Shown: positions 3,025 through 62,466 of the stretch, piece by piece | Numbering within the stretch: the stretch's first letter is position 1 | Layout: every line of letters begins with the position of its first letter | From: Yuukianura sp. NJ FZ-2021 | Lineage: Eukaryota | Assembly (NCBI GenBank): GCA_046563655.1 | Contig: CM102289.1 | Span: forward strand, 7,564,001-7,628,000 | DNA length: 64,000 nt | Direction of reading: 5' to 3' | Made by a program: the position numbers and the translations under genes | The notes under the pieces: generated by a model | What the model saw: the letters and a program-made list of their open reading frames with translations, nothing else | Databases searched by the model: none | What the model was told of the DNA's origin: nothing

Positions 3025-6000
3025 TTATTGTTCAAGGAGTTTCTGCATGGCGTTAAGGCTTGCTTCAAGCGCCGTTGCAAATTTAATTGTTGATGTGATT
3101 GGAGATGACTTGAATGAGGAGAGACAGAAGATGATTGATTCTTCCATGGGATTGTATGAAGCTCCATATCCATTCGGCACCACAGGTCCGTAGCCCATGA
3201 ACTGATTTTCTTTTGTTGGTAACTTTTCAAAAAAATAGTTTTTAAACAAAAACTTAAAATTTTGGTTTTGGTGCTTCAGGACTTACCTGGCTGGTTGAGA
3301 GAGCAAAGTAGTTGGCAATTGCAAACGTTTCATCTTGAAAAAGTTTTGGAACTTCTATGCCCATTTCAATTGCCTGTTCTTTGAGTCCTAGCAAATGAAT
3401 GTCAATTCCTTCTCCAGTGATGTTTTCAACCATAATCGTCGTTTGCTTTTCTACGGCTGCGTGGAATTTCCGGATTTGTTCGGTAGAGTCCGTTGTACTT
3501 GCGGTTTTGTGCATAGATTTGACCCAGTCGAGAGCTTCAATTGTGGTGGATCGGATGCAGTCTACGCGTCCAAGTTTGTAGCGACGTGTCGAGGCACTCT
3601 CGTAGGTAGCAACCATATTTTGGTGTATACTGCACGTAATCAAGGAAAAAGTAAAGCTGAAAAAGTAATTTTTAATTTTTTTGAAACAATTTTTGAAAAA
3701 ATTACCTATAATATGTAAGTTGCAAAGCAAGTTGAATGTAAACGTCTGGACTAACGCGACATTTTTTGATAAAGTTTTTCCCATAGCCGTCGTAGCGATA
3801 GACGGCCAAATCCAGATCGTGAATTAGACTGCAACGCAAAATGGAAAAAAAAAGTTCAATTTTGAAATTTGGAGATTGAAATTTCGAATTCAACACCGTC
3901 TATCCAATTTGTCATTTTTCTGTAAATTTTAATTTCCATTAGTTTAGTTGTTTCGCACCTGTCAATCGTAGATGCTGCTTTTGCAATAGCTTCTCTCGCT
4001 TCATTATTCAGAACCCACTCTAAACGAATCGGTTTTGAAATTTCTTCGCTCGATTTTCTCGTTTTTTCGACGTCATTCGATGTTTCTGTTTTAGTATCGG
4101 CCGACTCCCTGACAGACCGAATAAATTCGTCCACCAAGTTCAGAATTCCGATGCCCTCAGCAGTGGAATGTTCATAGCACAGGCCAATCGCACCGTCGGA
4201 CGATACGATAAACTAAATTCGAAAAACAAAGGAATTATAAAAAAAGGTTGATGCTTCAGTTTAGTTTTTAGTAAGAAGATTCGTTTTTGTATAACCTGCA
4301 TCGTTTTATCAAACCATCTATTGGGCGTGTTATAGTTACTCCCTCCGCCATGAATCATTTGATGCAACATGCTAGTTTCATCTCTTCCATTTTCCTGAAT
4401 CCTTAAACAATTTTTTCTAGTTGGTTTTAGCTTGCTATTGAACTGTTGAGCCGGAATGGGTTCATCGAGACAGACAATGAAGTGACAAGTTTCTATTTCC
4501 TCCAATGATTGTTTATTTACTTCCTCTAAAATGTTAAAATTTTTACAAGAAATTAAAGAAATTGACGAAATGAAGACCTAATTGTACCTGAGAACAAAAT
4601 TATGAGTGAAAATTACATACCTTCTAGTAAAATTTTTCGTGCGGCGGCCCAAACTCGTCTATCTTGAGTCGTAAGAACTCCCACAGGCTCTTCACTGTCA
4701 GCCGCTTCCAGGTCAACGATGGCTTGAAACTGACTAGCAATTTCAGATATTGTAAGACGCCTATTCACAGTTCGAATTGGACAACTAAAAAACTAAAAAC
4801 AGTTCTTGTTTTACTTTTTCCAAAGATTTCAAAATGTGTAGCTTTTGCCATTTTGCTCAAGTATGTGGATGATCATATCTTACATGTTTGCGGTATGCAA
4901 CGATGATATGATCTACAAGTGACATTGAAGTATCTCGTTGGTGATCTTTTGGAATTCCTGGTACACGATATGTACTCATGAGGCGGTAGTGTTGAGCCAT
5001 ACACAGTGGTTGACCTGGCTCCCTGCTAGCAGCTTTCTCCACTGGAATTTCATTTCTAAAAAAAAGTTCATAAAATTTTATTTACGAAAAAGTTTTCATT
5101 TAAAACAATGAACAAAAATCAACTATTTAAATCTTCAACCCGAACATTTTTACAAAGTTTTTAGGAATAAACTTGGTTGATCAAACTCAATTTTTGCTGT
5201 GGGAGCATAGAAAATTTGGGTTCCAGGAGTTTTCCTATTTTTAGTTTTGCTAATTTGAAAATCTTTTCAGTTATTCTATGAATGCCGAAATCTTTCAGGT
5301 GCCAATTAATTAACTCAAAATTTGGAATTCGAAGAAAAGTTTTCTCCGAGATTTTCGTTTTCCTTGAAATGAAGTTTTAGAACAAAAAGCAGGATGTGAA
5401 AATACCGACTTTCTTCCGTGAGAAGAACTCCCGGGAGATTTAAATGTAAATCCAAGACGAGGAGAAATAAGATCTCGTTTGTGCCGAAAAGACTCGGAAG
5501 ATCTTTGCATAAGAATAAGTTGACATAATCAGATTAGTAACTTTGGGAAGATTCCTGGACGTGTTGCGTAGGGAGAGACCGAGAATTTGTCATTGTCTCC
5601 CAGAAACAAAAGATTTCCTGCTACTTTTAGTAGATTTTATCCAATTCCAGAAGGAGCCTAACTCGAGTTTTCTGTATTCCTGGGATACCTCATCCTCCAC
5701 CGGGAAATTCAAAGATCCCGAAGTATAAGATGCAAAAGGGGGAAGAAATTGTAGATTCACCGGGACGAATCGGAAAGAGTTCCCGTGGGAATTGGGCTTA
5801 AGATCACTTCAGCCTAAGCCTCAGCTTTCTCCTCCTAACAAACCGAACTCCTAACCCTAACTTTCTCCATTCCCTACGCTAGGCTAGGTTACTAACATAA
5901 CCTTTCGACCTCACAACCAGTCGAAATGGATTAGACTGTTCCCTCTTCAGCTTCTGGGAAATGGGGATCAGCAAGTCCCCCGCCAAAAGTCAAATTGGAC

Positions 6001-22497: not shown

Positions 22498-24282
22498 CTA
22501 ATTGGACCTAAATGGGTTCCCACCTTCTCCGCCCCCACCCGATGGCGGCATATTTTTGAACGGGTTGAAAGTATTTTGATCTGAACTATTGGAATAGTTA
22601 GGTTGGGCGTGGTGTTGCGCCTGTGTGTAGTGGGAACTAGTACTGGAAGGCCCATTGGCTTTGATTGTATTAATTTCTCGATCACTAATACTCGTTTCCT
22701 TGAACGTCACCCGCTGACCCCCACCTCCCCCGCCCCCAAACTCATCTTCATCATCTTCTGCTCCCAGTCTTCCATATTTCTTGGAATAGTCAGGAACTAC
22801 TTTCCGATCCTGCATGGCATACGTTTGATAAGTTTTGTCTGGTGGATCCTTCATCATAATGTTAGCTTCATCCATGAAGCCTTTGTCATAGATGTGACGG
22901 AGCATGAACAGAAGAGGGACATAGGCTAAGTTAGTCACTGCAATGATGATATTTAGTCCTAGAAATCCTACTGATTCAATTACTCTTCCAGCAATTACCG
23001 GTCCAAATGCATATGCAAACGAGTAGGAAATGTCTGCAATGGCATAGATACTTCCATAAACGGAAACATACCGTAAGTCAACCAAGTAGCCCAGAGTAGG
23101 AAGCAGGGCCGTATCGACCAGAGCAATGCCAAAACAAATTCCTGAAATGGGAATGATGAGAACCCAATAGGATTTGGCAAAGGGGACCATAAGGGAACAG
23201 ACCCCTTCAAGGGCCAGTCCTGCTCCGGCAATAATCCACTGATACTGGGGATACTGCGCAGCAGTTCTCACGGTCACGACGACTCCAAGTACATGTGGAA
23301 AGAACGCTGGAAACCAAATCATGCCTTGTTGCCACTGTGTTGCATTCATTGTATCCATCATCCAGACACTAATTGTAGGTTCCAGGAATGCTAGAGAGAC
23401 GTTGGCCATAATAAGGGCTCCGGAACAAACGGCAATGTAAGGGTCCATGAACAGGACCCATATGGGGGTACCCTTAGGATGCTGAATTCCTTGCTCTTTT
23501 TGCTGTTTCTTGATGGGTCTCATCACAAGCCAGAGCATGATGCCGTCAATGAGGCAAACGAGAGACAAAATTAAAAATGGAACTTCTTTTCCCGCCATTT
23601 CGTACATGAGACCTCCGAATGGTGGCGCCACTAGACAGCCAAATGAAATGAAGGCAAGGGCTATGCCAAGGGCTTTGGATCTCTCAGCTTCTTCTGTATA
23701 AACTGAAGCTATCATGGCCAGTCCAGAAGTGTCAGCAAATGCTGATCCCACCCCTTGAAGACTTCGGGCAAAAAATAAGACGCTATAAGATGAACCAATG
23801 GCAAAAACGGCTGTTGAGAAGAACATAATTGTTAAACCAATCATCATCGGTTTGTCGTAGCCAATTCGATCAATTAATGCCCCCGAAAATGGATTAATCA
23901 TCAACTGAATCATGGCTTTCGATGCAAATAGAACTCCAATTGCAGCATCTTCCCCCTCATAAACTGTTACACCATTGATGAGTTTAGTTTTTCTAGATCC
24001 TTCTGTGTAAGTAAAATTCCCAGTTGAATTTGTAAATGTTATGGTTCTCGATGGTTCAGTAACGGCTTCTCCTCCTTCCAAATGTGTTTCCCATGAACCG
24101 ATCCTGCGCAGATAGTCGGGTATAATCGGAACAATGACCATGTAGAGCATGTTGTCCAACAATAAAGCAATTGCGACTATGACCAAAACCAATTTTTTCT
24201 GGGCCGTTTGATCTTCCAGTTTAGTCAAAATGAAATCCTTGACCTCCGCGATCTCCAAATTCAAAATAGGAACTTGCGGCAT
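22498..24282 (-). CDS. VAChT: vesicular acetylcholine transporter (SLC18A3, MFS), single coding exon
   Basis: 594-aa uninterrupted ORF with ALLLDNMLYMVIVPIIP, FASKAM.QL..NPFSG..IDRIGY, ARSLQGVGSAFADTSG, YVSVYGSIYAIADISYS. Lies upstream of the ChAT coding exons on the same strand. Confidence 0.97.
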   Translation of the reverse strand: MPQVPILNLEIAEVKDFILTKLEDQTAQKKLVLVIVAIALLLDNMLYMVIVPIIPDYLRRIGSWETHLEGGEAVTEPSRTITFTNSTGNFTYTEGSRKTKLINGVTVYEGEDAAIGVLFASKAMIQLMINPFSGALIDRIGYDKPMMIGLTIMFFSTAVFAIGSSYSVLFFARSLQGVGSAFADTSGLAMIASVYTEEAERSKALGIALAFISFGCLVAPPFGGLMYEMAGKEVPFLILSLVCLIDGIMLWLVMRPIKKQQKEQGIQHPKGTPIWVLFMDPYIAVCSGALIMANVSLAFLEPTISVWMMDTMNATQWQQGMIWFPAFFPHVLGVVVTVRTAAQYPQYQWIIAGAGLALEGVCSLMVPFAKSYWVLIIPISGICFGIALVDTALLPTLGYLVDLRYVSVYGSIYAIADISYSFAYAFGPVIAGRVIESVGFLGLNIIIAVTNLAYVPLLFMLRHIYDKGFMDEANIMMKDPPDKTYQTYAMQDRKVVPDYSKKYGRLGAEDDEDEFGGGGGGGQRVTFKETSISDREINTIKANGPSSTSSHYTQAQHHAQPNYSNSSDQNTFNPFKNMPPSGGGGEGGNPFRSN

Positions 24283-25137
24283 TTTTAAAATTTTGTTAAA
24301 CTTGATTTCCCTGGAGAAAGTTTACGGTAACGGCTACCCGGCGGTGGAGTTTGAAAAAAATATAATTATTTTTTGAATTTTGATTGGAAATGTAAATTTT
24401 TTGGATTAATTTTTCAGTGTGTGGAACACCAGTTCGAATCCCCGGAAGAGAGAAAATTATCACCCGGCGGGAAAAAGTAATCAGGAGCGAGAGAGAGGGA
24501 AATCCTGGATTGAATCTAATTCGATTTCAGTTTTGGTGTAACGATTGTGATGGGACTGAGAATAAAACGGGAAGGAAAATTTGGAAGCAAAAAAAAAGTT
24601 TTGAAAAAAACGACACACGAGTGGAGGGAAAATCGAACTGTGAAAAACAGAAGCGAAAATGTTATTCGTTTTTCTTTCGGTTCCGAAAAACTGTGAGACA
24701 GAAACTGAATTTCTCCGGGGAATTTTTCTGTTTCGGGAGAAAGTGGAAATGAGAAAAATAAATATTAGTGCTGACTTTCACGTTTCGGTTGAAGTCGAAG
24801 AAAAAAAAGTTTGTCGTAGGTTCGAATCTCCCCCTCCTTCTTTTTTCTTAACGTCGTTTGATGACTTGTTTCAGGTGTAGACACGAACGAAAAAAAAGTT
24901 GAGGCTTGGTGGATTCGAATCCAAATCCTGGAGTTAACTTGATTAAGGAAGACGGAGTAGGCTGAAGATGATGAAAAGTTTTTGGATTCTGCGCGATGAC
25001 AGTTGATGTTTTCTTGTTCTAATTAAATTGTTTCCATTTGTTTGTAGTTTAATTGGATGTTAGACGTTGAAGTTGTTCTATTCTTTTTAAGTCCTTATGC
25101 ACACAGCGTCTGAACTTTCCCCTGAACATCACCATCC

Positions 25138-33700: not shown

Positions 33701-34960
33701 GGTACTAACTATTTAAGTTAACAGAAAATCGTAGCTTTTAAATTCTGAAAAGCAGCGGAGAAGAAAGCAGGAGGGTTTAAGCAGCATAATCAGGAAATCA
33801 AATATTTATTTCCAATTACTGGATTGTTTGCATATGAAATTTGGTTTTCCCCTTTCTTTCCCTTTGTTTTCCACTACATACTGCGTAGAGTTTTTAGACC
33901 AACCTTTACAACTTAAATGAGGAAGTTGACACATAGAAAGTCAAATAAGCTGGGACAGTCACTTTCCCCTCCACTTCCGACCTAAACACCAATCGATTTT
34001 CTAACCAACGTATACGAAGTGGTCAAAGCATGTTTTTCGAAAGCAGTGTGAAAGTTTTATTCAAAAAGCTCAGGAACATAACTTACTAAAAAGCAACATT
34101 TTTGAAAATGTGAGTTATTTTCCATCCATTTATTTCTTTTAATGTACATAACATGTAAAACATTATAATATAATTGAATTAATTTAATAAGAAAAATGGA
34201 ACCATGTAAAAACATTTTTCATAAAATGAAAATCATATAAAATATGCAAAGCCACAACGACTTGAAAACTTTCAAACTTTCTCCTCCCCTTCCCTCATCT
34301 CCCTCTTTTCCATTTCCTTTGTTTATTAAGTGTGACCTCGGGGGGCTACGCTTTTCTTTTTAGAACAAACGACTAAGTTAACTTAATGACATTAGACAGG
34401 ACGAAAGGAAAGCACAGGTCGCAGGGGACTTCGGGAAGGGCCCTTGTGATGCCCTAAGGACCCTCCCGACGTTGCTCATATTCATACAACCAACATTCTG
34501 TCAATGACTAACCCAAATATTTGCATTTCAAAATAACCCGCTTATGAATTTTTTAAAATATTCATAGGCTATATTCTTTAGAACGCTAAATTTTGAATCT
34601 AGTGCTTAAACTTTTTAGATAAATTTTGAACTTTTTCATTTAAAAGTGGCATAAGATCTATGTGAAAGCTTAACAACCGTCGTCTGTCCAAGTGCAAGTT
34701 GGTAGCGAACAAGCATAACATTTCACAAAAAATTTCAAAAATTTATTCAATTTCATTTGAACACTGAAGGATTCTCACTCATGGCTTTTAATATTTAGAA
34801 ATTCCAGAACTAAAAGTTAAAAAGTTAGTTGTTACCTACTAATTTCTGAAAAGGAATTTTATACTAAAGTTTAAAAAAATTAGTCAAACAGCTTTGGTAA
34901 GATTACACAACCTTGGAAAAATTCAGTTTTCGTTTTCTCGTATATTGCATTTTTGTGCTT

Positions 34961-35561
34961 TCAGCACGGTACGCTCCGGCCCGGTTGTGCTAGCTGCGTT
35001 TCTTCAGTCTCAGATTGCTCAGCTGCGATTGCGCCGATTCTCGTAGTGCAAAATGGACATCGAGCTGCCTGTTTGGAAATAATACTGGTGCATTCCGGAC
35101 ATGGCCGATTGAGGGCTTCGTGTGCTCTCGTGAAAGTGTCAAAAACCCACTCTGATGGAACAACCACAACGTAGTAGAGGATGAACGCCGTAAGCACAAA
35201 GGCAAACAGAGCGTCGACGAAGGCGCCGTACCGGAACTCGCTGTGATTTATAGTGAATGAGTACGAGGTAAAGTTCGGTTGTGTTCCAAAAACTCCGAGA
35301 ATCGGTGTGATGAGACCCGTTGTAAAAGATGTTACTAAATTTGAAAAAGATGCTCCAATAACTACTGCAACTGCCAACTGGATCAAGTTCCCGCGAAATA
35401 GAAACTCGCGAAATCCTTGCATCTAAATTCAAAAATTCAAAATTAGAGTAAGAAGTCAATAGTTTACGTGTTTTTGAAAGAAATTGAAAATTTACCTTTA
35501 GTTTTTTAGCGACAGTTGCTAGATGCAACTTGGTATTGGCGTCTTTGATCATGGAATTCAT
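34961..35561 (-). CDS. mscL: large-conductance mechanosensitive channel MscL, bacterial type, with C-terminal CxxC-x10-CxxC motif; two exons
   Basis: Exon 2 35422-34961: FREFLFRGNLIQLAVAVVIGASFSNLVTSFT..LITP, TM2 YGAFVDALFAFVLTAFILYYVVVVP, tail CPEC-x10-CPFC. Its ATG directly follows TTTTGAATTTAG. Donor AAG|GTAAAT at 35495. Exon 1 35561-35496 adds 22 in-frame codons. AATAAA at 34747-34742. Confidence 0.88.
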
Positions 35562-36457
35562 GTTAAATTTTGTGAAAAATTTGCAGCTAAAATTTCACTT
35601 TGTACGGTGTAAACTACACCCTGAAATGTATTATGTCATTTTCAGTTCCACAGTTTAGTTTTTCTTAGTTCATTTTCCTGATGGTTTGGTATATAACCAA
35701 ATGCATCAAGGAAGATTCCATATGATTATAACCCAAGTACCATCGGATAAGCTACAGAATCTGCATTGGAGGTGTGAATAAGCTTGCCATGCTCCACAAT
35801 TCGGCTGGATAACCTTCATCTTTGTCTAGTCCAAAAGTACTTACCACAACAACAACCTTTAGTAGCCATACAAAAAAAACTATAGGGAAAAACTGTGACT
35901 GCGACAATAGGCATAAAGTCCAATTCCAACCATATTTACTTGTATGATGCTTCGCTAAATTTCCACCCACCGGAATTCACTTTTGGTTTCATTTTTTGTT
36001 TGCATAAAACATGCAAAAACTTTGTAAATGACAATTTGTATTCTAAAGCACGATATGCGCGTACAATTTTTTTTAAATCAGGAATATGACGAATTCGTAC
36101 TAATTTTCTTTAATCAAGAATATGACGAATCCAAAATAAATTTAACCCAGTAATTATACTTATTTTTAAAATTTATGCTCTTACAACTGTCACTTTTTTC
36201 AGAAGTATTTTTTTTGCCAACATTTTTCTTAGCTGAAAGTAGTATTGCGATTCCTGTCGTTGATGGAACTTTACAAGTTGAACCATTTATGCAATTATTA
36301 GGGAGTTTTGATGTTTTTGTCACACAGCATCACGAAATGAATCTAGTGGCAAATTGGGGCGATTGTTAATAACCAATAAATTGGAACACGCAATAGATAA
36401 CGATCTTTGAGTGGTGAATTTCAGCTCCATTGACGCTTCCAGTGTTGTAGTAAAAGA

Positions 36458-37468
36458 ATGTTCTCAACACGTCATTTCTGCTTCACTTCCTTAGTTTCAG
36501 TCATAATCTTAGTCTTTGGTAAAGTGACTGGACAAGACGATTGGTGTTATGAGGGGGCTTGCGGACCAAAAACTTGGACTGGATCGTGTCAAACTGGAAC
36601 GGCCCAGTCTCCTATAAATATTATTCCGGCGTCAACTACACGCTCCAAGCCAAATAGGACGCTTGTATTTAGTGCAGAGTTTTACGACATGCGAGAACTA
36701 GCAATTTTCAACACTGGGAAAACAATCGCATTAGTACCTACAGATGATGATGGCAAAACTTTCAGTGACCTCAGGGTCAAAGGAGCAGGATGGAACGGCA
36801 CATTCCATTTTCAAGGAGCTCAATTTCATTGGGGATCTGAGCATATGATAAAAGGTGTTTAAATTTTCATTTTACTAATCTGTCCAAACAAAAATCTTCT
36901 AAAATATGCTCAATTTTGTTTTGAAGGACAACGTCTTCCATTGGAGCTCCAAATGGTGTTTCAGCAAGCCAATACTAATGGACGAAGGCTAGGAATAATT
37001 TCAGTTCTGTTTGGATTATCTAAAAAAGACAGCAAAGCACTGGCACCAATTGTTTCATTGCTGGCTGGGGTAATGTGAGAAAATATCAGAATTTAAAGAA
37101 AAAAAAGTTTACAAGATTCATTTTACTCTATTTTGTAATAATTTAAGCTAAGACAAGTGAGCGAAGTAGGTCAGCTCATGCCGAACGGTTTCAACTTTAG
37201 TACTGTTTTTCCAAATGTTTGGGACGTGTTTCGGTACAATGGATCCTTCACACAACCTCCGTGTAATCCAAGCGTAATGTGGAGCGTTTTTACACAGAAA
37301 ATGCCAGTGTCGCAGACTCAAATTGATGCTTTTTCGAAAATACAAGATAATAAGAAAAAGGTGATTAAATTAAACTACCGTCCACTTCAGAAGGTATTCA
37401 CCAAAGACAGAAAAAAAATTTACTGGATGAAAATCGACAAAGCCAAAATGCGAGAAAATGTATTTTAA
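36458..37468 (+). CDS. secreted alpha-carbonic anhydrase-like protein, copy 1 (probably non-catalytic)
   Basis: Exons 36458-36854, 36927-37069, 37148-37468. Signal peptide, WCY..GP..W, QSPINI, FHWGSEH, PLELQMV, RYNGSFTQPPC..VMWSVF, NYRPLQ. Confidence 0.88.
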
Positions 37469-38378
37469 AATAATTCTTAATACAAATTCTTGTTTATGGG
37501 TTCCATTTTTAGTTCGCTACTTGTGTAAAGCGTCTACGGTTTATTGTGATGAATAAAAAATAAGTTTCTATTAAATTAATACCAAAATTGAAAATAACTG
37601 AAGAGGCATGAAGATATTTTCATGGGGAAACTTTTTTAAAAAAATGAAAGTTTTCTTTCGTTTTTGAGGGCGTCAATTTTGATTTTATTCCGATGAAAGC
37701 AGACGAGTTGCTCGACTTCCATCTCGTGCTAGCTTTCACTGACTTTAGCAGTTGAAAAAATTATTTTCATATTGAAGCGATAGACGTCAGTTCAAATGAT
37801 CAATAGGAAAATTCGTTATAAATTGATCATGTCGTGTATTATTATTCATTAGTTATCATTAGTATCATTTCTAAACAAGAAAAATCTGGTGCCGGAACAT
37901 AATATTTTTCAAACCTATTGTGACAACTTACCTGAACTTGAATTAAGTTCCTGTCAAAGTCAGAAAATAATGGACCAAAACAATAATGGGAAACTCATCC
38001 ACAGATCACCACACACGAAGGTTTAAGTTTAATTTCAAAAATTTGAAGTAAAAGTTCAACGTTTTTCTATGATTTTTATTTTTAAAATTTATGCTGTTAC
38101 AATTTTCACTTTTTCTCGGAACGATTTTCTGTCAATATTTTTGTAAGTACTAAAATTCCTGGCATTGATGGAACTTTATAATTTTGAACCATTTATGCAA
38201 GTATAAGCCAATTTTGATGTTTTTGTCACAAATTTAAGCATCACGAAATGGATCTGGTGGCAAATTGGGTCGATCGTTGATGCTGATACCAATAAATTGG
38301 AACACGCAATAGAAAACTTTTCTTGAATTATTGTGCACTTTTGAAACTCAATTGACACATCCAGTGTTGTAGTAAAGA

Positions 38379-39401
38379 ATGTTCTCGAAACGTCATTTGT
38401 GCTTCACTTCCTTAGTTTCAGCCATAATCTTACTCTTTGGTAAAGTGACTGGACAAGACGAAGACGGAGACGATAATTGGTGTTATGATGAGGGGATTTG
38501 CGGACCAAAAACTTGGACGGGATCGTGTCAAAATGGAACGGCCCAATCTCCCATAAATATTATTCCAAAGTCAACTACACGTTCCAAACCGGATAGGACG
38601 CTTGTATTCAGTGCAGAATTTTACGACTTGCAAGACCTAGCAATTTTCAACAATGGGAAAACAATCTATGTATTCCCTATAGACGGTGAAGGCCAACCTT
38701 CCAGCGTCCTCAGGGTCAAAGGAGCAGGATGGAACGGCACGTTCTATTTGCAAGGAGCTGAATTTCATTGGGGATCCGAGCATATAATAAAAGGTTTTCA
38801 AAATTTACTTTTCTTAATCTGTCCAAAAAAATGTCCTAAAATATGCTCAATTTTGTTTTGAAGGACACCGTCAAGCATTGGAACTCCAAATGATATTTCA
38901 GCAAGCCAATGATGGACCAGGAGTAGGAATAATTTCAGTTCTGTTTGCATTAACTAAAAAAGACAGTAAAGCATTGGCACCAATTGTTTCAATGCTTCCT
39001 CAGGTAAAGTCAGAAAGTTTCAGAATTTCCAAACAAAAAGTTTAAAATATTAATTATACTTTAATTTTTAATGATTTAAGGTGAGACAAGTGAGCGAAGC
39101 TCCTCAAAAGTTGCCGAACGGTTTCAACTTTAGTACTGTTTTTCCAAATGTTTGGGACGTGTTTCGGTACAATGGATCCCTCACAGTACCTCCGTGTAGT
39201 GCAAACGTAATGTGGAGCGTTTTTACCCAGAAAATGCCAGTGTCGCAGACTCAAGTTGACGCTTTTGCAAGAACTCAAAATAATCAAAGGAAGGCGATTA
39301 AATTGAATTACCGTCCACTTCAGAAGGTTTTCACCAAAGACAGAAAAAAAGTATACTGGATGAAAATTGACAAAGCCAAAATGCGAGAAAATGCATTTTA
39401 A
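38379..39401 (+). CDS. secreted alpha-carbonic anhydrase-like protein, copy 2 (probably non-catalytic)
   Basis: Exons 38379-38793, 38864-39003, 39081-39401. Same intron positions and motifs as copy 1 (FHWGSEH, ALELQMI, RYNGSLTVPPC, NYRPLQ). Confidence 0.88.
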
Positions 39402-40094
39402 AATGATTCTTACTAACTTTAGCCCTATCTGTATGCGAAAATTCACGCCAATAAAACGTAAAGTAGCGATTTCCTATGTTGTAGCAAAAGTAGTTTTTCT
39501 ACTTTATATCTTTTCCTATCCATTCCTTTTCTCTACTACCATCTCGTGTCGGTTTTCACCAACTTTTTGAGTTGAAAAATGTAATTCTGTTGTTGAATCA
39601 GTAACCGTCATCTCAAGTTTTCAAAGAAACAGTCGTTATAAATTGATCATGTTGCGTATCATTAGTTAATCATTTTCAATTGTATCGAGGATTGTAACCG
39701 GAACCAGAACAAAATATTTCCCAAATCTATTGTGACAACTTACCTTAAATTAAATTACGTTTTTGTCAATTTCAGAAAATAATAGACGCACAAAAATATT
39801 GGACTACTCATTTACCACACACGAAGGTTTCACAATTTCAGATAATTGGAGTAAAAAAGTTCAAAAAAATTTTCTACATGCAATGTTGTTTTGTACAAAT
39901 TAACAACACTCAAGGTTTTCAATTTCAAAAAATGACGGAATCAATTGGCAATATTTGAAATAGTCGCAACTAAACTGTATTTTTCATCAAGACAAGAAAT
40001 GTATTTCAGTCGGTCAACTTTTTGCAATAAATTTGGAAGGTAAAAAGTGAAAGTTTTTGAATATTTTGAATTCAAAATTCCAGTTTTGACTGCC

Positions 40095-51010: not shown

Positions 51011-51625
51011 TTAGCAGAAGATGATACGCAGTCCAGGATTTCCAGGTCGGCAGTCCCTCATTCCCGCTTGGTCGTCTTTGGACCACGAATAAACCCCGGG
51101 GCAATATCTCTTAATAGCGTCCGAGTACGGGGTTGGTGCATCCCTGTTGAGACTTTGACAAGCTACAAACAATCCCTTATTGTACACTCTGTTTTCTCCA
51201 GGACAGGCATTAAGATCGAAAAAGCAACTGGGAGTGTTGCAATTTCCACCGGCATTGGGGTTGTAAGGTTCCATGGTTACTGGAATATTGTAACCATCAA
51301 CCATGCTGATGTCGAACCAATTCCAACCATCCAGGTCCCAGCCGAACTCTGCTAAGCTGACAGTACCTTCCCAAGTATCGCAATTTCCGCCGCCAGCATC
51401 ACATCCCATGTGAGCCCATACCCTGCTACGGTGAGATCCTGGTCCACCTCGGTTTACACCAATGGCTCCGCTCGTTTGTCCCCTGCCAAGCCAAAAGTGA
51501 CCGGAATTAATGAATTCGCTTTTGACGTAAATATCCCACTGGCAGTTGTTACGAATAGTGACTTCTTCGGCTAATATTTCCAGTAGAAGTGCAGAGAGAA
51601 CGGAGACTACAATGATCAATTTCAT
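51011..51625 (-). CDS. secreted thaumatin-like (PR-5) protein, 10 Cys, intronless
   Basis: Signal peptide, TIRNNC, SRVWAHMGC, VSLAEF, WFDISMVDGYNIPV, CPGVYSWSKDD, terminal IIFC. TCAGT at ~51665, AATAAA at 51004-50999. Confidence 0.92.
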   Translation of the reverse strand: MKLIIVVSVLSALLLEILAEEVTIRNNCQWDIYVKSEFINSGHFWLGRGQTSGAIGVNRGGPGSHRSRVWAHMGCDAGGGNCDTWEGTVSLAEFGWDLDGWNWFDISMVDGYNIPVTMEPYNPNAGGNCNTPSCFFDLNACPGENRVYNKGLFVACQSLNRDAPTPYSDAIKRYCPGVYSWSKDDQAGMRDCRPGNPGLRIIFC

Positions 51626-53093
51626 TTTCGCAAAATATTTTAGCTTTACGTAAACAATTTACTGAGTGGAGACTCTGGAAAGTTTTTAAACCATTTTAAG
51701 CAAAAGTATTTTGGTTCTGCTCTTAGATAACAATAATAACATCATCAGGGCTGCAAAAAATATTTTCTTGAATGTTAGATATTTATATTTCTTGGAACAG
51801 CAGTTTGTCATTGTAAAAAATAGATACATATTCTTTTTTGTCGAAAATGTCTGGCGCTTTTTAAAAGATGAGTTATATTTTTATGCATATTTAGCCGTTT
51901 TTGAATTTCAAATAAAAATTTAGCATTCTTGGTAATTTTTTTTGGCTCGCCGGTAACGATTTCATCACAGTGCTTTTGTTTGAACCGGGGCGCCAACAGA
52001 ACCTATTTTTGAATATTTTATATTATTATAATAAAATAAAATAAAGGCTAACTATGCTATACTAAAATTTCTGGCTAAACGGAAAGTTTCAGCTGATAAA
52101 TACACAAACGTCAACTAAATTTGTGTGACTGTAAGTTAAATTTTTGTAAATATTGGCTTGGTTAGTAAATATGTTGTTAATTTACAATAATTGCCGTTGG
52201 TATTTCCTGTTTTTTTATTAAATGTCTCAAAATAATTTTTGGGTTTTAGTAAATACTTTGTGCAGCGCTGATTATTACTGCTGCACAGGTGTTATCATTT
52301 TGACCAAGATTAAGTGCTTATTGTCGTAGGCATTTATCCAGACCGCTAAACTATTTTTCCACTTTAGTTACCATGAATTAGCTATGCCGAATTTCGCCAA
52401 TTTTCTTAGAATTGTTTTGCAGCAGAACTGTAAACAATTTCAATATACGTACCGTAAAACTTCTAATAAAGACACGTACGTTTATTTAAAATTTTAGATG
52501 TTGAGATGAGATTCAATGTCAGAGCCTTGTAACCTTGATCTTGCTGACAACAAATCCACTTGAAATGCTCAAATCCTGGGAAAGTACTGAATTTTGGTAA
52601 TTTTAAAAGTACTTGGCACTTGATATTTTTTGAGATTAGAAACACGCTCCAAAGAAGTAATCTCAATTTTGATGACAAACAATCCACTTCAAGATTCAAC
52701 TGATGGAAAAGTACTAATTTTTTTTTAGTACTTGGTAATTCTGCTCGAAAATTTGATCTTCATTTTTTTAAAAATATAGCTTATCTTCTAAAAATCCAAA
52801 ATCTTCCCACCTTTCCATCCAGCCAATATGGCGCACTACTCAATTTCGTATCGCAAAATCGCAGTTTCAATGTCAATTATAAATCAATCAACCGATAACT
52901 ATTATATTTTAAAAATTAATTGTAGAGTTGGAAAGTGTGATTACTTAAGAGGCTGTCAATCATGAAACAATTAGTTGATATCACAAAAATTGACGTCAAT
53001 TGTCATGCTCTCTAACCAAGCATTTCTCATATATAAATCTGCAAACTGCAACAGAATTAAGTGTGCTAATTACCGTTTTCAAGAAAACTAAAC

Positions 53094-54055
53094 ATGAAGC
53101 TTTTCCTTGCTTTTCTCTTGATTGCTGGAGCAGCAGGTAATAATCCTAAGCAGTTGCTAATCGAGAGAGTGCCGCTCCACTCCGAGCAGTAATAAAACCC
53201 AAGTGGGGCTCCGCTCGCGAGCAAAGAGCGGACCGCTTTTATCTTCGCTCTCAAAGGAGCGGGTGCTCTCTCAATTTGCAGCAACTGAGATCCTAAGAAT
53301 TCAGAAAATAACGATTGATTATTTTTTTTGTAGCAAAATACGAGGGACCCACAAACCAAGCAGGTCTAGACTTGATCAAGTATTTTGAAGGATTTTACCC
53401 CGACTTCTACACTGATCCCGTTGGCATCACAACCATTGGTTATGGGCATGCCTGTCACGTCAACGATTGCTCAGTGCCACTAAACGGGAAGTACTGGGTA
53501 CCGCTAACCCTAGCTGATGGTGAATCTCTGTTACAAGATGACCTTGCAAGCGGATATGAGGATTGTGTCGCAAATTATGTTACATACAGTGGCTTAAATG
53601 CTGACCAGTTCTCAGCTCTTGTCTCGTTCACTTTTAACCTCGGCTGTGGAAGTTTGCAAACTTCGTCTCTCGTTGACTATCTAAACGCTGGAGATGTTCA
53701 AAGAGCATCAACCGAATTTGGGCGATGGGTGTATGCTGGAGGAGATATCTTACCTGGCCTCGTGACAAGGCGAGCGGAAGAAAATATCTTATTTTGCAAA
53801 GGCACTTGCATTGAGTATTGTACTGGCACAACTACTGATCCTTTGAACATGAGAACACAACCAGACACTACTGCCCCAGTTGTAGCGACTATACCTGCAG
53901 GTTGGACTATCATCATTACTGGAAGAGTGCAAGGAGACGTAATCAACGGTAACAGTAACTGGTTCAAGCTGCAGTATGGAAGTTCAACTGGATATGTTTC
54001 GGCTTACTATGCTAACATGAAGCACAATAATGGACAGTCCTACTGCGCCAAATAA
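53094..54055 (+). CDS. secreted GH24 (phage-type) lysozyme with C-terminal bacterial SH3 (SH3b) domain
   Basis: Exon 53094-53136 (MKLFLAFLLIAGAA), intron 53137-53333, exon 53334-54055. LIKYFEG..YTDPVGITTIGYGH (E-x8-D-x5-T intact), QFSALVSFTFNLG, GLVTRRAEE, then LNMRTQP..WFKLQY..GYVSAYY. TATATAAA at 53030. Confidence 0.92.
53151..53289. mobile_element. ~140-bp MITE in the lysozyme intron, hAT-like 8-bp direct repeat
   Basis: CAGTTGCT..GAGAGAG..CCGCTCC mirrored by GGAGCGG..CTCTCTC..AGCAACTG. ATCCTAAG at 53143-53150 and 53290-53297. Confidence 0.75.
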
Positions 54056-58495: not shown

Positions 58496-58864
58496 CCATA
58501 AAAAGGAAATAAAACCAATAGTACAACTCACGGTTACTTTTTATTGAACATTTGGAACATGAAAAAATAAGTTAATGGACTTTGGTCAACAATTCAACTC
58601 AACTTAACTCAACAATTTACTGGAAATACTGGGAACATTGGAAACCACCATACAACAATCAGTGACTACGGATACAACAGCTGATCAGAGACAAGTGACT
58701 GCCTGATTGCATAGTCAGTTCTTGCTCTCTGCGGAATCAACAGACTTATCAATTACAGATACGTTTATGACTAATACGTCAAAAACAAATCCAGTATTGG
58801 TACCATGAAATACTGCCAAATTATTTTCTAACTTACAGATTACCAATTAACAATATTAGCACTG

Positions 58865-59608
58865 ATGAGCTCAAACCAACCAGCCAAAACAAGAGGAACG
58901 AAACGGAAATCCGAATTAGAAATTTCGCAATCAACCAAAGTTACCAAAATGACAGAAGCAGATCTAGCTCCTGTACTGGCCGCCATCAACAAACTGAGCG
59001 ACAGAATGGACCGCAATCACATTGAGCTTACGAACCAAATACAGTCAATCAAGACAGATATCACGACACTCCAAACCAAAGTGAATGAAGTAGAGGCCAC
59101 CAACAAACAGATCAGTCACCACCTAAGTAGTCACGACCGTGAGATCGAAACGATTCTAATCAACTTGAATAAATCAAACCTCATACTACACGGGCTACAA
59201 CACTCTGCGGGAGAGTCAACCGAATCGATTACTGCTCAAATAAAAGAGATTCTGCAAAATTCGCTACAAATTGACCTCACTAGCGAAATTCAGCATGCTC
59301 ACCGTCTGGGTCGACCCACCGCTCAAAATCCAAACAAACCAATTAAAATAATGTTCAAATCGCTGGACACCAGGAATACTGTCTGGAGAAATCGAATGCG
59401 TGTCAAACAATCATTTCCAACTCTCAGCATCAATCAAGATCTCCCACCTGTCACCAGGAAAAAGTTAGCAGCCAAACGACAGAACCTAACTAACAATGCT
59501 GACGAACAAAACAGCCCCAACGTCAACACTCCAGCCCAGAATACGACATTCGCTCGAAACCCCGGCTTCGCACGCAGCAGTATGACCCCACGATCACCGC
59601 CATTGTGA
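58865..59608 (+). CDS. LINE ORF1 (coiled coil + RRM-like)
   Basis: Heptad-rich N-terminal half, then NLILHGL, AHRLGR, KPIKIMF, INQDLP motifs typical of L1/L2/CR1 ORF1 proteins. Confidence 0.85.
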   Translation: MSSNQPAKTRGTKRKSELEISQSTKVTKMTEADLAPVLAAINKLSDRMDRNHIELTNQIQSIKTDITTLQTKVNEVEATNKQISHHLSSHDREIETILINLNKSNLILHGLQHSAGESTESITAQIKEILQNSLQIDLTSEIQHAHRLGRPTAQNPNKPIKIMFKSLDTRNTVWRNRMRVKQSFPTLSINQDLPPVTRKKLAAKRQNLTNNADEQNSPNVNTPAQNTTFARNPGFARSSMTPRSPPL

Positions 59609-62466
59609 CAACCAGCTACCACACCACGTCAAAAGGTCAAGTATGAGCTTACCATAGCTCAATTGAACATTCGCTCCTATTCAAAAAAATTCCCCGAAGT
59701 GTGTGATCTACTAAATATTCAAAATATCGACATCCTATGCTTATGTGAAACCTGGCTTACACCAAGCGTCACGGCAATCGTTCCTCCCGGATACTCCATG
59801 TACAGAAACGATCGAATTCACAAAAGAGGAGGAGGAGTGTGCATAATTGTAAAAAACTTGTTCAAAATTCTAAAAATTTCAAAATCAACGCCAGGCCCAG
59901 ATCACCACATCGAACATATTACAATCAAACTACAGATCAATTTCAACAAAAGCATAACAGTTACATGCCTGTATCGGCCACCAGCAAGATCCGGAACTCT
60001 AATCAGAAACGACATTTCATTCATTTGTAAACTAATTCAAGAAATAAACGAGACAAATTGCTCATCTTACATGGCTGGAGACTTTAATTTTCTTCCCGGT
60101 AGTGAGTACAACGATTTCAAACGCTCCTTCCAGATTCATTCCATCAGTCAACTAGTCACAATACCAACACGTGGTCAAAACATATTAGACTTATTTCTCA
60201 CTAACAATAGTTCAGAGGTGGCAACATGCGATGTAATCGACTGTGACTTATCTGACCATTCTCTCGTTCTCGCAAAAATCAAATCACAACGAATTCAAGT
60301 GGAGCCGAAACAAATTCAATACAGAAACTTTGCAAACATAAACATGGAGAAATTAGCTACACAAGTTATTTTGATCCCAGACACCACAGGAATAAATGAC
60401 CTTGATTCCAAATTGTCTCACTTCAAGTCATCTCTGGTTAGCGTATTCTCCAGCCTAGCACCTACGAAAACAAAATTCATACGAGAAAACCGGTTAAATT
60501 GCTACTTATCCGAACGTACCCGTGACCTCATCAAAAAGAAGAACAACCTCATAAAGAACGACCGAAATTCGTTATTCTATGTACAAAAACTAAAAGCAAT
60601 GAAACGACTCGTTCAAACTGCAGTGAAACGAGAGACAACAAACTATTTTAACGATCTAACCAACAGGAATGGAATCCACGATGCAGTCAATAGATTTTGT
60701 AAACTAACAAAGAAAAAATCAAACCCACCAGCACCAACAATAGACGCAGAAGAAATCAACAACTATTTAATACAAATCAGTACCAAATCAACTGCGTCAA
60801 CACTCTATGAAAAACCGGTTAGCATCTTGACACCTCCTGAGGCAATATCATTCAAAATCAACAGCTACGATGTCATCAAAGCATGGAAAGCTGCAAAAAA
60901 GAAGAAATCAAAATCGATGGACACAATGGAAGTATGTCCGTACATGATCGAGCTTACACTTCGGGCACCGAATATTCTGGATAGCATCACGGACATTATT
61001 AATGAAAGTTTTCGCAAGGGCTATGTCCCTGAACCTCTAAAATTAGCCAAAGTGATTCCATTGCCAAAATGTGACAATCCAAAATCTGCCAGTGAATTTC
61101 GCCCAATCTCCATCCTTCCTGTCGTCTCAAAAATAATGGAAAAATGTGCATTTGAAAAAATAACGCATCATCTTACTAAGTACAACCTCCTCCACCAAAA
61201 CCAATTCGGTTTTCGGAAAGGTCACTCCACTACGCAGGCGCAGATTGCACTTACAGACTTACTCTACAACTCATTTCACCAAAATAAAATCTGTGCAGTG
61301 GTAACATTGGATCTAACCAAAGCCTTCGACACAGTAGACCGCGAAACTTTGATACACAAAACAAAATGGTATGGACTCGAGAACCAGTGGCTCCAATCCT
61401 ACTTATCGTGTCGCAAACAATATGTACTCAGCCAGAACAAAAAGTCGACAACACAGGAATTCACTTTAGGAACTCCGCAAGGTGGAATTTTGTCGCCACT
61501 TCTCTTCAGCATTATGGTGAATGACTTGCTCTCGTCTTTCAATCAACTTTTTCCTGAAATTTTGATCATGTTTGCGGACGACAACTCCATCATCATCAAG
61601 GGCGACCCCAACTTACTGTTCCAGTTTAAGTCTGATGTAGAAAAATGTGTAAATTTTGTGATACAATGGATGAAATCAAATCTCCTCTACATAAACAAAA
61701 GGAAAACTTCAATTCTACTGTGCGCAAAACCCAAAATTCTCCAGAGCATTGGGCAAATTACATTTGACATTGATGGTGAACAAACAGCAACAGTGAATTC
61801 GTTAAAAACTCTTGGACTGACGATCGATTCTCAACTCAGATGGGACACTCATATAAACACAGTTGCAAAACGGTGTTTTGGCATCATCGCTTCTCTCTAT
61901 CCACTTCAACGCTACCTCGACTTAATCAACCGAAAAATCCTGATGGAGTCATACGTACTCTCAAAAGTCACGTACATGTCAGAAATTTGGGGACAAAGTA
62001 AAAAGAAATACCTCAAACCAATGGAAAAAGTGATAAGATCTGCAGGAGATTCACTTTAAGCGTCAAAAAGTTCGATCATGTCAAGCTAGAAATTACTAAG
62101 AAGTTACAATGGCTATTCCCTAAGCATCTAACCGATTACCGGCGTCTACTTCTAGCAAAAGGAATAGTTGCTATGAATTGTCCAAAATACTTCGAGGGGT
62201 ACTTCGACGAGATAGAATCACGCAAAAAGAAAATCGTCACCAGAAAACATACACACACCAGCGTCATGCCAAACAGCGCTAATCATCCGCTCTCCTTCAA
62301 AACATCTGCAGTCAGCAAATGGGAAAACTTACCAGAAGATCTCAAAAATGAAGCGAACTCGCATAAGTTCAAAGTAAAGATTAAGAAGTACTTCCTCACA
62401 AAACAGGAAATGGAAGCGGAAGCCAAGGAAAATTCAGACGATCATCACCTCTCAGAGCAAGATTAA
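59609..62466 (+). CDS. LINE ORF2 (AP endonuclease + reverse transcriptase), one frameshift near 62047
   Basis: LNIRS, LCETWL, GGGV, YRPP, GDFN, LDL, SDH (endonuclease); FRPISILP, QFGFR, LDLTKAFDTV, GTPQGGILSPLLF, FADD (RT). After ~62047 the protein continues in another frame (RFTLSVKKFDHV..LQWL) to the stop at 62466. Confidence 0.9.

Follow-up and report, generated by a model that had tools for sequence, protein, structure and literature searches.

The MscL gene and its protein

The window analysed here is a stretch of 64,000 nucleotides (nt) of contig CM102289.1 (GenBank assembly GCA_046563655.1, positions 7,564,001 to 7,628,000) of the springtail Yuukianura sp. NJ FZ-2021, and the feature under study is a gene for MscL, the tension-gated safety valve that textbooks describe for walled microbes. 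The open reading frame (ORF) at 34961..35422 on the reverse strand runs from ATG to TGA without interruption (153 codons, stop at 34963-34961), with a GC content of 0.485 and a third-codon-position GC content (GC3) of 0.468. An in-frame TAG lies immediately 5' of the ATG. Residues 1-98 of the 153-residue protein match profile positions 2-97 (of 123) of the Pfam MscL family PF01741 at 91.7 bits, against a gathering cut-off of 27.4 (E 5.7e-26). Eight distinct solved MscL sequences were matched by phmmer, the best being that of M. tuberculosis (2OAR and 6CTD, E 6.5e-14). Residues 1-90 align with 2OAR, and the first transmembrane helix (TM1) is matched nearly position by position, the motif GNLIQLAVAVVIGASF of the window protein standing opposite GNIVDLAVAVVIGTAF of 2OAR.

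An AlphaFold2 monomer model, computed from a 95-sequence alignment (mean predicted local distance difference test score, pLDDT, 79.4), has helices at residues 2-8, 11-44 and 65-104 and two short strands in the loop, that is, an N-terminal helix and two transmembrane helices. In Foldseek comparison with the PDB, rank 1 was 2OAR_A (E 3.2e-4, probability 1.00, TM-scores 0.39/0.46, 37% identity over 100 columns), the sole match at E ≤ 0.001, and ranks 2-5 were the archaeal MscL 4Y7K. The modest TM-scores are due to the use of a monomer model and to the different C-terminus. A search of the ESM Atlas returned bacterial MscL clusters only.

All parts of the coding region lie on the reverse strand. 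The amphipathic helix S1 (residues 2-8, 35399..35419) has G3, F4, F7 and L8 invariant in a 17-sequence alignment. The pore-lining helix TM1 (residues 11-44, 35291..35392) carries the LAVAVVIG motif, of which L16, A17, V18, A19, V20, I22 and G23 are invariant across the same 17 sequences; the residues of this conserved hydrophobic motif presumably form the pore gate. The outer loop (residues 45-64, 35231..35290) contains strands at 56-58 and 61-63 and the invariant residues P49, F51, F56, N59, S61 and F63 (17 sequences); in a eukaryote, N59-x-S61 could serve as an N-glycosylation sequon. The second transmembrane helix (TM2) and its cytoplasmic continuation (residues 65-104, 35111..35230) align with TM2 of 2OAR as far as residue 90. 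An earlier note, made from the sequence alone, had recognised an MscL with S1, TM1 and TM2 at this place, and profile, alignment and structural match confirm that 34961-35422 encodes MscL.

The zinc-ribbon tail

Profile positions 98-123 of PF01741, the cytoplasmic C-terminal helix, are unmatched in the window protein, and no C-terminal helix bundle was found. The canonical helix is replaced by a predicted four-cysteine zinc ribbon (residues 105-126, 35045..35110), whose cysteines C108, C111, C122 and C125 are invariant in both the 17-sequence and the 95-sequence alignment. Pfam zinc-ribbon profiles match residues 105-126 weakly (E 0.02-0.06), AlphaFold2 predicts a ribbon hairpin with strands at 105-107 and 114-116 (pLDDT 84-91), and Foldseek returned weak matches of this region to RanBP2/NZF-type zinc fingers (root-mean-square deviation about 1 Å, E 0.8-2). 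Beyond the ribbon follows an acidic C-terminal extension (residues 127-153, 34964..35044; pLDDT 53-64), which is absent from the nearest bacterial proteins. C-terminally truncated MscL is known still to gate.

The ribbon is also found in bacteria. All 80 prokaryote loci that were kept encode MscL, and matching cysteine pairs occur in nearly all of the C-terminal tails printed for them. These loci (L001-L080) extend the zinc-ribbon form over soil bacteria of the Actinomycetota, Acidobacteriota, Chloroflexota and Dormiibacterota and one cyanobacterium of the Gloeobacterales. Since bacterial relatives have the same tail, the ribbon is, by sequence comparison, the mark of an MscL subtype that came complete from the bacterial donor lineage, rather than an invention of, or a loss in, the animal. 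No description of a zinc-ribbon MscL subtype was found in the literature searched.

Integration in the host genome

Five sequencing runs from two studies contain the stretch, and the contigs of four of them (X1-X4) were compared with the window. X1-X3 share one sample, which may be the window's own source, and X4, which differs in organism label, study and year, is alone independent. A single X4 contig of 2357 nt corresponds to 34897-37240 and takes in MscL from end to end, the intervening spacer and the first of the carbonic anhydrase exons; it differs from the window by 79 substitutions and 23 gap letters. Its depth is 6.11, compared with 6.53 and 5.2 in adjacent host contigs, so that neither an assembly break nor a coverage shift, which the earlier note had named as grounds for doubt, was found at the flanks.

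The spacer between MscL and the carbonic anhydrase gene (35562..36433, approximately 870 nt) separates the two head to head. Two carbonic anhydrase genes lie on the forward strand from 36434 and from 38376 (Carb_anhydrase, E 6.5e-12 at 36434-36862). On the other side, MscL lies about 10.6 kb 5' of an intronless VAChT-like ORF of the MFS family (22498-24321), on the same (reverse) strand, and no convincing ORF was found within 24.4-34.9 kb, between the two. An exon of choline acetyltransferase (ChAT) follows at 3254-3823, also on the reverse strand. The best named match of the VAChT ORF is that of the springtail Allacma fusca (76%), with crustaceans next (about 62%). Together with the matches of the lysozyme ORF described below, which lead to Orchesella and Allacma, this marks the host as a springtail. 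MscL thus stands between arthropod genes, as was first noted from the sequence.

The composition of the gene is that of its host. GC3 of MscL (0.468) compares with 0.36-0.46 in host ORFs and exons and with 0.91-0.96 for MscL in five related actinobacteria; the MscL codon composition is fully ameliorated to the host. The coding body was described earlier as more GC-rich than its surroundings, and this is correct (0.485, against 0.32-0.33 in the flanks). As a sign of foreign origin the excess was rejected, since host exons have 0.40-0.47 and the difference is that of coding sequence from its AT-rich non-coding surroundings.

Contamination or a chimeric assembly, in which the MscL of a gut or soil actinobacterium had been stitched into an animal scaffold, would fit the fact that, outside the arthropods, the nearest named relatives are Actinomycetota living free in soil, and X1-X3, as the window's own data set, lend no independent support against it. 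The bacterial GC3 is nevertheless far from that of the window gene, the AT-rich flanks run on into host genes, the X4 contig links MscL to a carbonic anhydrase exon at the depth of its neighbours, and the clade of the protein also contains RefSeq-type proteins from two other arthropods, encoded on contigs of several megabases. Because of the host-like GC3 and the independent X4 contig, contamination and chimerism are set aside as extremely improbable. The MscL gene is physically integrated in a springtail chromosome.

Upstream exon and flanking signals

A putative 73-nt GT-AG intron (35423..35495, reverse strand) ends directly before the MscL ATG, with GT at 35495-35494 and AG at 35424-35423; the donor reads AAG/GTAAAT (35497-35490) and the acceptor TTTAG/ATG (35427-35420). 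The putative first exon (35496..35561, reverse strand) consists of 22 in-frame codons from an ATG at 35561, or is a 5' untranslated exon; the encoded peptide would be lysine-rich (5 K, 1 H, 1 D). The intron signals and the in-frame 22-codon ORF that were noticed earlier are therefore present at the sequence level. GC content is 0.22 in the putative intron and 0.38 in the upstream exon, and in favour of the intron AGGTAA is rare, with 32 occurrences in the 64 kb on both strands. An allele contig of X1 (35157-35591) has 7 substitutions and 9 gap letters in all: 3 changes are synonymous in the coding body, 4 substitutions and 5 deletions (9 nt) fall at 35442-35492 inside the putative intron, and none falls at 35496-35591. 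Judged from these sequence features, the 5' intron is likely real.

The 22 codons may or may not be translated as an N-terminal extension. Against the proposed intron and first exon, or neutral towards them, are the following observations: 22 open codons would arise by chance in DNA of the flank composition with a probability of about 0.24, and in Folsomia and Bradysia the protein starts at the methionine equivalent to the bacterial one, without a homologous extension. The longer ORFs of sciarid type (P0242, P0244) have upstream residues unrelated to the window's 22 codons.

Contigs of X1 and X3 diverge from the window at 35425 and 35441, within the putative intron, and continue in loose ends of 255 nt. 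An insertion may thus be present at this place in some haplotypes, which counts in favour of the intron.

At the 3' side an AATAAA was located at 34742..34747 (reverse strand), 214 nt past the stop, in agreement with the 215 nt or so first given, and an ATTAAA is also present 169 nt past the stop. The AATAAA was rejected as evidence of a transcript end, the hexamer being too common in this AT-rich window (139 occurrences in 64 kb on both strands, approximately one per 920 nt per strand); it stands as a possible polyadenylation signal in position only. Some 760 nt 3' of the stop, at 34102-34203, about 85-100 nt are replaced by 6-17 letters in all four runs, in at least three variants, an indel polymorphism.

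Relatives and phylogeny

A word-index protein search gave 328 candidates, of which 214 had E ≤ 1e-3, and the best 120 of these 214 were listed. The top match is P0001, a protein without organism name (73-74% identity). Among the best 120, the only named animals are Folsomia candida (one protein) and Bradysia coprophila (two), and the nearest named bacteria are Spinactinospora, Nocardiopsis and Spiractinospora. The Folsomia and Bradysia genes lie on contigs of 1.9, 2.6 and 12.9 Mb. An exhaustive search of 1.84 billion representatives produced 7375 matches at E ≤ 1e-3 and 12 at E ≤ 1e-30; there the arthropod and Nocardiopsaceae set amounts to one 50% cluster representative. A metagenome scan for close relatives gave 11 loci, all bacterial-looking, at 31-54% identity, and P0001 (74%) was not among them.

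Two trees were computed. A quick tree comprised 111 rows (the window protein, P0001-P0040 and the 70 genome loci L001-L070), and a more careful IQ-TREE analysis comprised 81 (the window protein, P0001-P0040 and L001-L040), L041-L070 being confined to the former; P0041-P0120 and L071-L091 are in neither. In the IQ-TREE analysis the window protein and P0001 form a pair (support 100/97) within an arthropod-type clade of 31 rows (100/99), which includes Folsomia, two Bradysia paralogues and others, 27 rows being without organism name. This clade lies inside a group of 41 rows (92/99), whose other 10 rows are 8 named Actinomycetota (Nocardiopsis, three times, Spinactinospora, Spiractinospora, Allonocardiopsis, Actinoallomurus and Actinospica) and two rows without a name, which group with Spiractinospora. 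The quick tree agrees, with supports of 99 and 96. Within the arthropod-type clade a sciarid-like subclade of 22 rows (100/100) divides into two groups with one Bradysia paralogue each, and this sciarid group meets the groups of Folsomia and of the window protein, as well as three single rows, in a polytomy.

The nearest bacterial neighbours in both trees are thus the zinc-ribbon MscLs of the Nocardiopsaceae (Spinactinospora alkalitolerans, Nocardiopsis mwathae, N. alkaliphila and Allonocardiopsis opalescens), which share the whole architecture including the CPxC...CxxC ribbon at 50-60% identity with the window protein. They differ in that they end just past the ribbon and have Q10, F84 and no W92, in contrast to R10, Y84 and W92 of the arthropod type. 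All 31 arthropod-type rows are 139-166 residues long (134-136 in 8 Nocardiopsaceae-like rows), and the derived residues shared by the clade are R10, Y84, S90 and W92. The proteins of Folsomia candida and Bradysia coprophila, labelled "large-conductance mechanosensitive channel(-like)", have the same ribbon and a C-terminal extension and are 45-55% identical to the window protein. Bradysia has two paralogues and the window one copy, and no N-terminal extension is annotated in Folsomia or Bradysia.

The gene therefore nests in actinobacterial MscL, as the phylogeny proposed in the earlier note could have shown, and the tree is without the broad animal inheritance that would have spoken for vertical descent; the absence of MscL from other animals rests on annotated proteins. 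That note's proposal of a horizontally acquired bacterial-type MscL in an animal genome is supported by this position and by the junction with a host gene in X4. The sequence comparisons support descent of the arthropod-type MscL genes from actinobacteria and from one common origin, with either direction of passage between arthropods conceivable, and they indicate an old transfer from bacteria. The donor would have been a Nocardiopsis-like actinobacterium (Streptosporangiales) that passed a zinc-ribbon MscL to an arthropod. The transfer is placed long ago because of the host-like codons, the added acidic tail and the possible gain of a 5' intron. One acquisition would be common to the springtail of the window, Folsomia candida and the sciarid fungus gnats with their two Bradysia paralogues.

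It is also conceivable that springtails and sciarids acquired the gene separately from related, unsampled actinobacteria, with no transfer from arthropod to arthropod. The polytomy inside the arthropod-type clade would permit this, the 27 of 31 rows without name could include bacterial donors, and both kinds of host live in microbe-rich soil and litter. The clade itself has support of 100/99, however, and its derived residues and C-terminal extension are absent from all 8 Nocardiopsaceae-like rows. In addition, PMC11665903 describes a pattern shared by Collembola and Sciaridae for terpene synthases, mentions it for P450s, and proposes transfer within arthropods, from soil arthropods to Sciaridae. 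Separate acquisition is rather unlikely on balance.

Constraint and function

The 31 arthropod-type proteins have 29 invariant positions, including A19 and G23 of TM1 and all four cysteines, a count that is lowered at the N-terminus by one truncated row. Among the listed allele differences in the coding region, four of five are synonymous at third positions and one is A120T. The arthropod-type branches of the IQ-TREE analysis are not longer than the bacterial ones in proportion. Compared across these sequences, the pore and zinc-ribbon residues are conserved.

An idle integrated gene, unexpressed or functionless and open by chance or through recent arrival, would account for the fact that promoter, intron and polyadenylation signal are all putative, the AATAAA being without weight and none of the five runs being on record as RNA, and for the one non-synonymous difference. 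Its full amelioration, however, implies long residence with the ORF still intact. Moreover, arthropod-type proteins down to about 45% identity keep length, TM1 motif and four cysteines, four of the five listed coding polymorphisms are synonymous as against nine changes in the 73-nt putative intron of one allele, and two paralogue lineages have been kept in the sciarid-like group. That the gene is idle is accordingly improbable.

A functional channel is probably encoded by the window gene, as far as its sequence can be read. Canonical MscL is established to assemble as a ring and to open a wide pore under membrane tension. By homology both ends of the springtail protein would lie in the cytosol; this orientation is preferred because R5 and R10 are basic residues before TM1 and a cysteine-zinc module suits the reducing cytosol. 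The subunits would form a ring as in bacterial MscL, with the TM1 helices lining a hydrophobic constriction, and near-lytic membrane tension would open a wide, non-selective pore. The cuticle of springtails and sciarid larvae is permeable, their soil habitat alternates between drought and flooding, and some springtails accumulate sugars and polyols in their body fluids during drought, which makes re-wetting hazardous. In a drought-acclimated, osmolyte-loaded animal that is suddenly re-wetted, the pore may shed solutes and so spare the cells from lysis. By this analogy an emergency solute-release valve against hypo-osmotic swelling is put forward tentatively as the role of springtail MscL, with somewhat more doubt than belief.

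The protein might instead have been repurposed, either for an organelle or a special tissue by way of the basic 22-residue extension, or for a signal other than tension that is sensed by the zinc ribbon. The upstream exon, if spliced and translated, would put a lysine-rich peptide before S1, a ribbon stands where the helical bundle would be, and animal cells are without turgor. Opposed to this are the Folsomia and Bradysia proteins, which have no such extension, the unrelated upstream residues of P0242 and P0244, and the pore-lining residues, which are kept as in tension-gated MscL. A repurposed protein is considered unlikely.

The reading as a whole, an integrated springtail gene for a zinc-ribbon MscL, derived from a Nocardiopsis-like donor and shared with Folsomia and Bradysia, is held with good confidence; identity, integration, bacterial ancestry and the conservation of pore and ribbon residues are shown, whereas expression, ring assembly, gating and the part of a solute valve are inferred. 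Several points tell against it. The window protein falls below every NCBIfam MscL equivalog cut-off, scoring 68.7 against 71 for TIGR00220 and far under the cut-offs of the other seven models. TIGR00220 gives the MscLs of Nocardiopsaceae 65.1 and 62.8, that of Bradysia 69.2 and that of Folsomia 73.0; since bacterial zinc-ribbon MscLs also fall short, the deficit belongs to the subtype and is no sign of decay. Known arthropods make up 4 of the 31 rows of the clade (the window, Folsomia and Bradysia twice), and some of the other 27 could be bacterial. The donor position is itself a polytomy among actinobacterial lineages in the IQ-TREE analysis. The identity of the window protein to Nocardiopsaceae is as high as that to arthropods (Folsomia 54%, sciarid group 45-55%), and the clade therefore rests on few derived states and on tree inference. 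No annotated MscL of Allacma fusca or Orchesella was found among the best 120 of the 214 matches, both species being in the database; MscL is either patchy within springtails, or present and unannotated in these two. The allele sample is small, with 5 coding differences listed and 369 further differences outside that listing. None of the five runs, in two studies, that contain the stretch is on record as RNA. Lastly, animal cells have no wall or turgor, so that the bacterial role is not simply transferable to them.

A more far-reaching version, in which an animalised MscL serves as the springtail's re-wetting valve, was passed between soil arthropods in either direction, and has its targeting or gating altered by the basic peptide of a newly recruited 5' exon, is speculative, and taken together its parts are unlikely to hold. 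If it is true, springtail MscL would be the first channel of its type that is native to animal physiology.

Other features of the window

The ChAT exon and the VAChT-like ORF, on one strand, have the arrangement of an animal cholinergic locus. The carbonic anhydrase pair (36153-40000) is a tandem duplication, 84-94% identical, that repeats at approximately 1.92-1.94 kb. In one X3 contig 36214 is followed directly by 38154, so that 1939 nt are missed out, and another contig steps back by 1939 nt; these jumps hint at copy-number variation or at contigs that collapse both copies.

Fragments of G-protein-coupled receptors are also present within the 64-kb window. A thaumatin-family ORF lies at 51011-51658 on the reverse strand (E 1.9e-19). 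An element of the long interspersed nuclear element (LINE) type occupies 58832-62059 on the forward strand; its 816-residue ORF (59609-62059) has endonuclease and reverse transcriptase domains and is preceded by a 258-residue ORF without Pfam match.

The ORF at 53312-54055 on the forward strand encodes 247 residues with a phage-type GH24 lysozyme domain (PF00959, E 3e-37) fused to an SH3b domain of bacterial kind (E 7e-11). Among named organisms its best relatives occur in springtails (Orchesella dallaii, 61%, O. cincta, Allacma fusca, 57%, and Folsomia candida), in the oribatid mites Oppiella nova and Medioppia subpectinata and in Glomeromycota (Rhizophagus and others), with bacteria next. 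GC3 is host-like (0.40). The ORF looks like a second gene of foreign origin in the window.

Comparison with known systems and meaning

The window protein has S1, a TM1 of the LAVAVVIG type, the outer loop and TM2 in common with M. tuberculosis MscL (2OAR) and with canonical PF01741. It differs from the canonical form, which has a cytoplasmic C-terminal helix, by the four-cysteine ribbon and the acidic tail, and, unlike canonical MscL, the gene resides in an animal nucleus, follows host codon usage and has a possible intron. The terpene synthases, P450s, beta-lactam genes and GH enzymes of bacterial or fungal origin in springtails and sciarids resemble it in host range and soil ecology; they are enzymes, whereas MscL is a channel.

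PMC3681921 states that the MscL family had not been reported in animals. The literature search found no paper on MscL in springtails, Bradysia or other animals. Papers on Arctic-springtail expressed sequence tags were rejected as MscL reports, the term being absent from their main texts, and "mechanosensitive", "MscL" and "PF01741" are absent from two supplementary files of the Folsomia genome paper. The MscL genes of Folsomia and Bradysia are labelled in public databases and, as far as searched, undescribed in the literature.

If springtails and fungus gnats share an MscL that is conserved and adapted to its hosts, this would offer a natural test of a bilayer-sensing channel in cells without a wall. 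It would be a candidate gene for tolerance of wet-dry cycles in soil-animal physiology, and it adds a membrane channel to the genes common to Collembola and Sciaridae. The zinc-ribbon MscL subtype of soil bacteria merits study for itself.

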